In this document: one piece after another, positions 41,997-42,085 of the stretch
Layout: the number at the start of each line of letters is the position of its first letter
Numbering within the stretch: the stretch's first letter is position 1
Source: a bacterium
GTDB taxonomy: Bacteria; Patescibacteriota; Minisyncoccia; Sungbacterales; HO2-52-23
Direction: 5' to 3'
Assembly (NCBI GenBank): GCA_030697525.1
Contig: JAUYPW010000026.1
Coordinates: 1-42,883, forward strand
Length of the DNA: 42,883 nt
Program-made: the position numbers and the translations under genes
The notes under the pieces: model-generated
The model's input: the letters and a program-made list of their open reading frames with translations, nothing else
Told to the model about the DNA's origin: nothing
The model's database searches: none

Positions 41997-42085
41997 GGAG
42001 TTTCTCGGGTATCCTGTCTTTTGATTGTCTCAAGACCACATAGCCTCGACCCGCTATTTCTGAAAAGCAACTTACCCAAGACTCC
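41997..42085. repeat. Mini copy C of the palindromic element family
   Basis: ggagtttctcgggtat ... gtctt-ttgattgtctc-aagac ... agcctcgacccgc ... tacccaagactcc. The arms are homologous to copy B (gttttctcggcaa / gcctcgaccagc). Confidence 0.5.

Follow-up and report, generated by a model that had tools for sequence, protein, structure and literature searches.

Small non-coding palindromic repeats that lie in intergenic DNA and leave decayed copies include REP/REPIN, the Correia elements of Neisseria, the RUP, BOX and SPRITE elements of pneumococcus and the Rickettsia palindromic elements. Streamlined CPR genomes are thought to hold little repetitive or selfish DNA, and the literature on CPR MITEs or structured RNAs yielded nothing relevant. 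In the CPR sequence analyzed here (42,883 nt, the window), two full-length structured elements, A and B, belong to a family whose closest analogues in mode of action appear to be the REP/REPIN, Correia and Rickettsia palindromic elements. The likeness lies in non-coding units of 100-170 nt with long complementary ends, placed in spacers beside gene ends and co-transcribed with their neighbors, in presence and absence among close relatives, and in truncated relics found beside full copies. In contrast to those repeats, A and B have a three-way-junction core with near-invariant junctions and fully replaced stems, a design nearer to a functional RNA than to a transposase-bound TIR; they come without target duplication, RAYT or transposase; and their copy number is low, with two full copies in 43 kb and 0-1 per relative's contig.

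Integron attC sites, in which an R'' box (RYYYAAC) at the 5' end pairs with an R' box (GTTRRRY) at the 3' end, offer a second comparison. Both systems consist of folded single-strand elements located after ORFs with structure conserved beyond sequence, and both show bulged bases, an unpaired central spacer in the stem, variable apical structure and a functional strand opposite to the coding strand. Unlike attC, A and B have no R''/R' boxes, integrase or cassette array. The motif GTTT(Y)C does not qualify as an attC box: it is bulged, lies at the wrong (plus-strand 5') end and finds no AAAC to pair with. The junction and stem were also inspected by eye for hammerhead, kink-turn and attC features, and all three readings were discarded, the defining sequences being missing.

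A and B (76% identical), each about 160 nt in length, are predicted to fold into a three-way junction that is closed by a long outer stem and bears two hairpins. Fold z-scores ranged from -8 to -9.5 on both strands, with minimum free energies of -79.6 on the minus strand versus -69.1 on the plus strand for A (z about -8), and -85 versus -74 for B. A covariance model built here (R1) recovers A (123 bits, E 8.5e-30), B (175 bits) and two copies found elsewhere, L009 and L010, whose cores are 93-97% identical to that of B, with near-invariant junction and loop sequences. The outer ~15 nt of the stem are conserved (TCGCTRGTTTYCTCGGCA / TGCCTCGRACYAGCGA), whereas the inner 12-18 nt differ completely in A, B, L009 and L010 yet are paired; the inner part of the outer stem and one hairpin are thus wholly different in sequence between members with pairing kept. 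Double changes were found in 12 of 47 pairs, a number reached in none of 500 shuffles and compared with a maximum of six in slid controls.

Folding was also strand-specific. The model orientation corresponds to the window minus strand, and there the fold of each of the five members is more stable by 4.7-11.5 kcal/mol; four A.C 1x1 mismatches on the other strand become G.U pairs in the model orientation, with none in the reverse direction (in B, two plus-strand C.A mismatches turn into G.U on the minus strand). Since the minus strand is the better-folding one, the GTTTYCTCGG box described in the original prediction is the complement of 5'-CCGAG-N-AAAC-3', located in the outer stem, where the TC/TC loop becomes tandem G.A beside an A-rich bulge. 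Across A/B-type elements, the box is conserved as an unpaired or mismatched part of this outer stem. No sigma-70-like promoter was found flanking A or B on either strand, and a U-run is absent from both.

A distant member, L023, was detected in another Parcubacteria MAG (R1, 27 bits, E 3.5e-5), and with R1 and a second model built here, R2, the matches to A, B, L009, L010 and L023 had E-values of 1e-5 to 1e-44. Pattern scans gave one true match in the genome collection, L009, in a MAG titled Saccharibacteria, and one in metagenomes, L010, on a Hainich groundwater contig that ends within the element; eight of the nine genome-collection matches were GC-rich chance matches, and nothing real emerged from a scan of viral contigs. 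A model match in L026 was rejected as a fold-back assembly artefact. This contig (ERZ27253378 k141_1842654, 1-7675) is a fold-back chimera with genes mirrored around 3570, the source of the spurious palindromic match. A search of the window against Rfam 15 (all 4227 families) returned no match at gathering or permissive thresholds, the best sub-threshold ones being unrelated miRNA, snoRNA and leader families with E of at least 0.37.

The element is antisense to the neighboring genes in A, B, L010 and L023 and sense in L009, where (region 5080-5316) it lies downstream of a consensus promoter (TTGACG-17-TATAAT) and takes up the 5' UTR of a gene for an HtrA-like protease, ending at the ATG. The ribosome-binding region is overlapped by the 3' strand of the outer stem, so that in L009 the element may act as a cis-regulatory leader, and this placement suits a selfish repeat no better than a regulatory RNA. 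The proteases at B and in L009 are not orthologous, which rules out a link between the two copies through a shared protease. As a tentative proposal, to which we attach limited confidence, the ~160-nt element would be an undescribed CPR structured RNA or folded single-strand DNA whose core has a specific role (catalysis, ligand or protein binding) and which spreads between spacers, even lineages, with CCGAG-N-AAAC as a handle for mobilization and with C and E as footprints of past insertions.

The original prediction named four further loci, C to F, as short units sharing the box and a CCTCG arm with A and B, and proposed either an active small repeat family or a widely used terminator or regulatory module. 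The sequences quoted for C, D, E and F were all found at their coordinates (Table 1), and none of the four overlaps the ORF set, so that all are intergenic. The prediction was partly right: the word that it describes is real, intergenic and strand-specific, and at least one of the short loci is a truncated relative. Our own reading, held with slightly better than even confidence, is that these short loci differ in origin. A and B would represent a family of ~160-nt intergenic elements with near-invariant junctions and loops and with stems swapped by compensatory changes, copies of which are gained and lost between spacers. C would be a decayed copy that kept the outer-stem arms and lost the core, E probably a smaller remnant with one arm and the terminal stem, D an independent stable hairpin among several clustered in a 3' UTR, with a 5-6-nt loop motif alone in common, and F an RRM mRNA leader that happens to contain the U-rich GUUU(U)CUCG; none of the four would act as an intrinsic terminator.

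Table 1. Positions of the full-length elements and short loci in the window, and contents of the spacer between the ABC-2 permease and UDG genes in the window and in related contigs (UDG identity in brackets).
Feature	Position	Strand	Description
Element A	27869..28034	-	~165-nt full-length three-way-junction element between ABC-2 permease and UDG genes; reference for the box
Element B	35469..35628	-	full-length copy after a trypsin-like protease gene
Copy C	41991..42061	-	arms only; plus-strand 5' arm GCACGGAGTTTCTCGGGTATCCTG, 3' arm GATTGTCTCAAGACCACATAGCCTCGACCCGC; ~100-nt core missing
Copy C, span originally given	41997..42085	+	includes the alternative outer pairing GGAGTTTCTCGGGTA / TACCCAAGACTCC
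Copy D	24160..24215		56-nt stable hairpin, apex CACGAAAAC/GTTTTCGTG, GC-TC-GGC / GCC-TC-GC symmetric loop
Copy E	11993..12019		exact box GGTTTTCTCGG, GCAT, terminal ACCCGC, then T-run
Copy F	28717..28760	+	part of conserved RRM gene 5' UTR
ABC-2 permease/UDG spacer, window			element A
ABC-2 permease/UDG spacer, L010 (83%)			element nearer to B and C than to A
ABC-2 permease/UDG spacer, L019, L020 (87%, 86%)			unrelated palindrome TCTGTACnGTAC...
ABC-2 permease/UDG spacer, L011, L013, L030, L031			10-40 nt only, no element

The exact box GTTTYCTCGG occurs four times in the window, always on the plus strand (12000 in E, 27878 in A, 28717 in F and 35477 in B), against an expectation of 0.2, and none of 100 shuffles reached four. 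All four matches are intergenic. Allowing one mismatch added ten matches, all coding, giving a total of 14, which is near chance (6.0 +/- 2.6). The ORF-based gene set leaves 4,020 nt of intergenic DNA, or 3,682 nt once A and B are removed; the latter contain three plus-strand TTYCTCGG matches (C, E and F) where 0.067 would be expected, and two exact 10-mers where the expectation is 0.002; neither count was reached in 1000 shuffles. The concern that the box might be a coding-sequence k-mer is thus dispelled, since it is enriched in intergenic DNA even without A and B. Among the relatives (94 kb), the motif GTTT(Y)CTCG is found in intergenic DNA essentially in RRM leaders only, which makes the extra boxes specific to the genome carrying A and B and leaves no basis for describing the module as widely used.

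Sharing of box and arm among the loci was incomplete. The exact box is present in A, B, E and F; C has a nine-base variant, GTTTCTCGG, short by one T, and D has GCTCGGC...GCCTCGC instead of any box. On the plus strand of intergenic DNA, GCCTCG occurs in A, B, C and D only, and E and F have no CCTCG arm, leaving C as the only short locus with box and partner arm together. When compared with the order of the outer stem (box GTTT-N-CTCGG, arm GCCTCG(R)AC, terminal complementary stem), C has all three features in order, D the partner arm and loop, E the box and terminal stem, and F the box alone.

It might be argued that, apart from A and B, these loci are unrelated hairpins and U-rich leaders in which a short word recurs by coincidence. 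None of the short loci is individually significant with the covariance models, the E-value being at least 0.6 for each; many exact matches of 9-13 nt between A or B and coding sequence have an equal BLAST score; and the symmetric TC/TC loop is not rare, with 22 occurrences against 10 expected in a structural pattern scan at a loose setting. BLAST-short and Smith-Waterman searches of the window with the element arms likewise returned 9-11-nt matches at background level, in a test of too little power, given that the true homologues A and B barely exceed noise on arms alone. The counts of 10-mers and 8-mers in 3.7 kb of intergenic DNA speak against such a coincidence, as do the ordered sequence blocks and the expanded spacer of C described below, and we regard this explanation as unlikely.

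In a MAFFT alignment, C matches the two ends of A, B, L009 and L010, with order and orientation preserved. Its 5' end consists of the box and GGTATCCTG and its 3' end of ATTGTCT...GCCTCGACCCGC, so that the box, ATTGTCT, GCCTCGAC and the terminal CCCGC follow each other in family order. C has GCGGGTCGAG in common with the L010 arm, GGTATCCTG in C and CAGGATACC in L010 are exactly complementary, and no other non-family stretch of the window matches the B and L010 3' arms as well. The spacer that holds C measures 139 nt, compared with ~30 nt in L021, an expansion of ~110 nt; the orthologous L021 spacer contains only TATCGAGGtctcgCCTCGATA and is flanked by a protein 74% identical to that of the window. 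L013 was ruled out as an orthologue of this site, as the flanking proteins are unrelated.

The model scores of C come from the arms only (R1, 10.9 bits, E 0.9; R2, 11.1 bits, E 0.59; window search), both matches running from one end of the model to the other (positions 1-160 with R2) and leaving out the ~100-nt core, and the E-value would be about 0.05 if intergenic DNA alone formed the search space. With E-values of 0.6-0.9 on the arms, C is at best a truncated derivative and not a full member. In a two-arm test with the arms of B, C scored 46, the true homologue A 49 and the best random sequence 45, a margin of one point that also fits coincidence. The fold of C is weak and not distinctive (MFE -23 kcal/mol, z -1.96), and a scan of 41950-42160 found neither a terminator nor a promoter. 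An arms-only covariance model was dropped, as MAFFT had misaligned A by one base. Judged from these alignments, C is quite probably a decayed, internally deleted copy.

Comparison of orthologous spacers indicates that A and C are insertions relative to the spacers of related genomes. As the same spacer is filled or empty among close relatives (Table 1), copies appear to be gained and lost in the manner of a non-autonomous mobile or palindromic repeat. Three independent assemblies (contigs L010, L024 and L025) break within an element. When filled sites (window, L010) were compared with empty ones (L011, L013, L030, L031), no direct repeat indicative of a target-site duplication was seen at the borders, and none of the 44 window genes encodes a transposase (RAYT, or IS with matching ends). 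With no transposase, target-site duplication or promoter found, the word mobile refers here solely to presence and absence.

A second palindrome showed a comparable distribution. The 23-nt perfect palindrome TGTACAGTACTAAGTACTGTACA lies at 3371-3393 in the window and at 403-423 and 759-779 in L019 and L020, respectively, where it occupies a non-orthologous site, the ABC-2 permease/UDG spacer that holds A in the window. From its positions, TGTACAGTACTAAGTACTGTACA is a second, apparently movable palindrome family in this lineage.

These observations bear on the proposal that A to F all form one active small repeat family of MITE or REP type, whose short units are basic or miniature forms still spreading. 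The strong enrichment of the box in plus-strand intergenic DNA would fit, as would the insertions A and C, the three assemblies broken within elements and the movement of TGTACAGTACTAAGTACTGTACA between sites. Against it, six genomes that lack A and B conserve F as an orthologous mRNA leader, D is boxless with a noise-level score, the short loci are alike by no more than 8-12 nt, the poor fold of C (z -2) is that expected of a dead copy, and no transposase or target duplication was found. We consider a single active family very improbable. The repeat-family half of the prediction is supported for C and plausible for E; it is unproven for D and does not apply to F, a conserved leader. The label active finds no support in a set with no transposase in the window, no target-site duplication and a degenerate C. 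A to F do not make up a six-member family.

In contrast to C, copy F is, by its conservation, part of the 5' UTR of the RRM gene and not an A/B copy. The RRM gene has a near-consensus promoter (TTGACA-17-TATACT, 28662-28690), which places F about 20 nt into the RRM mRNA. Six genomes share an alignable leader, in which TTGTAAG(T)TTTCTCG is invariant and a hairpin, GTAAGG...AGAG(A)AGGTCGCCTTACA, is conserved. The box column of F reads GTTTTCCCCA in the closest relative. F was not reported with R1 or R2. As an RNA, the leader (28697-28837) of the RRM gene (28838-29200) carries the 5' word UUGUAAG(U)UUUCUCG and the hairpin GUAAGG...AGAG(A)AGGUCGCCUUACA and has no Rfam match; it may be an autoregulatory or cold-type leader. 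An invariant 5' word and a conserved hairpin recall the 5' UTRs of bacterial RRM/Rbp and cold-shock genes, a likeness limited to F and one for which no Rfam model matches. An identical 13-mer, TTTCTCGTTTTGT, is present at 5152-5164, in the spacer before a Wzy/TPR gene, and at 28706-28718 in the RRM leader.

The occurrence of GUUU(U)CUCG in the RRM leader could reflect a common binding factor rather than coincidence. In such a scheme, box and arm would form a plus-strand regulatory or terminator RNA module bound by one protein, for example the RRM protein acting on its own leader and on other mRNAs. In its favor, every box lies on the coding (plus) strand, the RRM mRNAs of six genomes all carry GUUU(U)CUCG unchanged at the 5' end, and A and B, which lack a promoter, are probably transcribed into plus-strand RNA by read-through; the box being predicted to be unpaired or mismatched, as is often the case at binding sites, would fit as well and proves nothing. 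However, no terminator signature was found, the family folds better and keeps its G.U pairs on the opposite strand, the motif is missing from the other intergenic regions of relatives, and the box of F itself is not conserved in the closest relative. Taken together, a protein-bound RNA module of this kind seems improbable.

The box region of E is identical to that of B over 11 nt, and E is the top match in the window for the 5' arm of B; besides the box, it retains a terminal GCGG/CCGC stem, of about 4 bp only. R1 and R2 did not report E. Since the extra boxes are specific to the genome carrying A and B, a solo-end relic is the best guess, and on these sequence features the chances that E is one, with a single arm and the terminal stem, appear evenly balanced. 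E sits between two divergent gene starts, flanked by a plus-strand terminator (11951-11982) and a minus-strand terminator (12065-12046). Just upstream, 11874-11992 on the plus strand contains a promoter (TTGACT-17-TATACT, extended TG) followed by a 14-bp terminator with a U-run, a unit of ~80 nt upstream of murB that is either a small RNA or an attenuator. Just past C, at 42093-42121, a GCGG-N12-ACCCGC-TTTT unit has an outline like that of E (GCGG-N13-ACCCGC-TTTTT); the 10-mer ACCCGCTTTT, common to both, is not statistically significant alone.

D has the C-TC-GG/CC-TC-G loop and CGAAAAC/GTTTTCG in common with the stem of A, and its scores are at noise (R1, 6.9 bits, E 9.5; R2, E 7.8). Downstream of a major-vault-protein (MVP) gene, it follows a first hairpin (24135-24158) and precedes a canonical terminator (24224-24248). 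A D-like hairpin after the MVP gene was absent from relatives, which carry other hairpins there and are too distant, at 64-65% MVP identity. Homology of D to the A/B family is doubtful. The gene itself (21632-24127, plus strand) encodes an 831-aa major-vault-protein homologue (Pfam Vault_3 and MVP_shoulder), a protein that is common rather than unique; the protein collection contains over 6,500 homologues from bacteria, among them Parcubacteria, Polyangiaceae and Riflebacteria.

The original placement of the short loci mostly after stop codons is accurate for C, 3 nt past a stop codon, and loosely for D, with another hairpin in between, and does not describe E and F. Some likeness to intrinsic terminators exists, with GC-containing hairpins in spacers after genes and TTTTT following E. 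Under a criterion of a GC-rich stem of at least 5 bp and a U-run within 2 nt, however, no intrinsic terminator was called at C, D (scan 24100-24300), E (11800-12110) or F (27700-28900), although these scans did call hairpins nearby. A U-run is missing from C, D and F, the stem of E measures only ~4 bp, and the many canonical terminators of the window look quite different. The terminator module finds no support in these scans, in which C, D and F failed and the stem of E was too short, nor in A and B, where the U-run is missing.

A structured element that is gained and lost and leaves relics would show that CPR intergenic spacers turn over, and could serve as a marker for strain-level comparison. 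The parent element, which combines a conserved junction core with wholly replaced stems and belongs to no Rfam family, is the more interesting object; the short loci add little beyond copies decaying in place. The identification of F as an mRNA leader removes a false positive, which matters for any motif-based census.

Other structured or repetitive features were observed in the window. A hyper-structured element of 280 nt at 13133-13411 (29-nt near-perfect inverted arms, MFE -144.6, z -15) begins in the last murB codons and contains two sub-hairpins. The right one (13277-13377, minus strand) has GAGGAGCGA...GCGAC in common with the A/B core, with an R2 score of just 9.9 bits (E 1.3). Within the ORF at 31640-34285, which encodes an 881-aa protein without a Pfam match, 147-nt tandem repeats at 31889-32724 specify a Cys-rich module, and a second short repeat of GGT/PPS type is found at 34016-34224.
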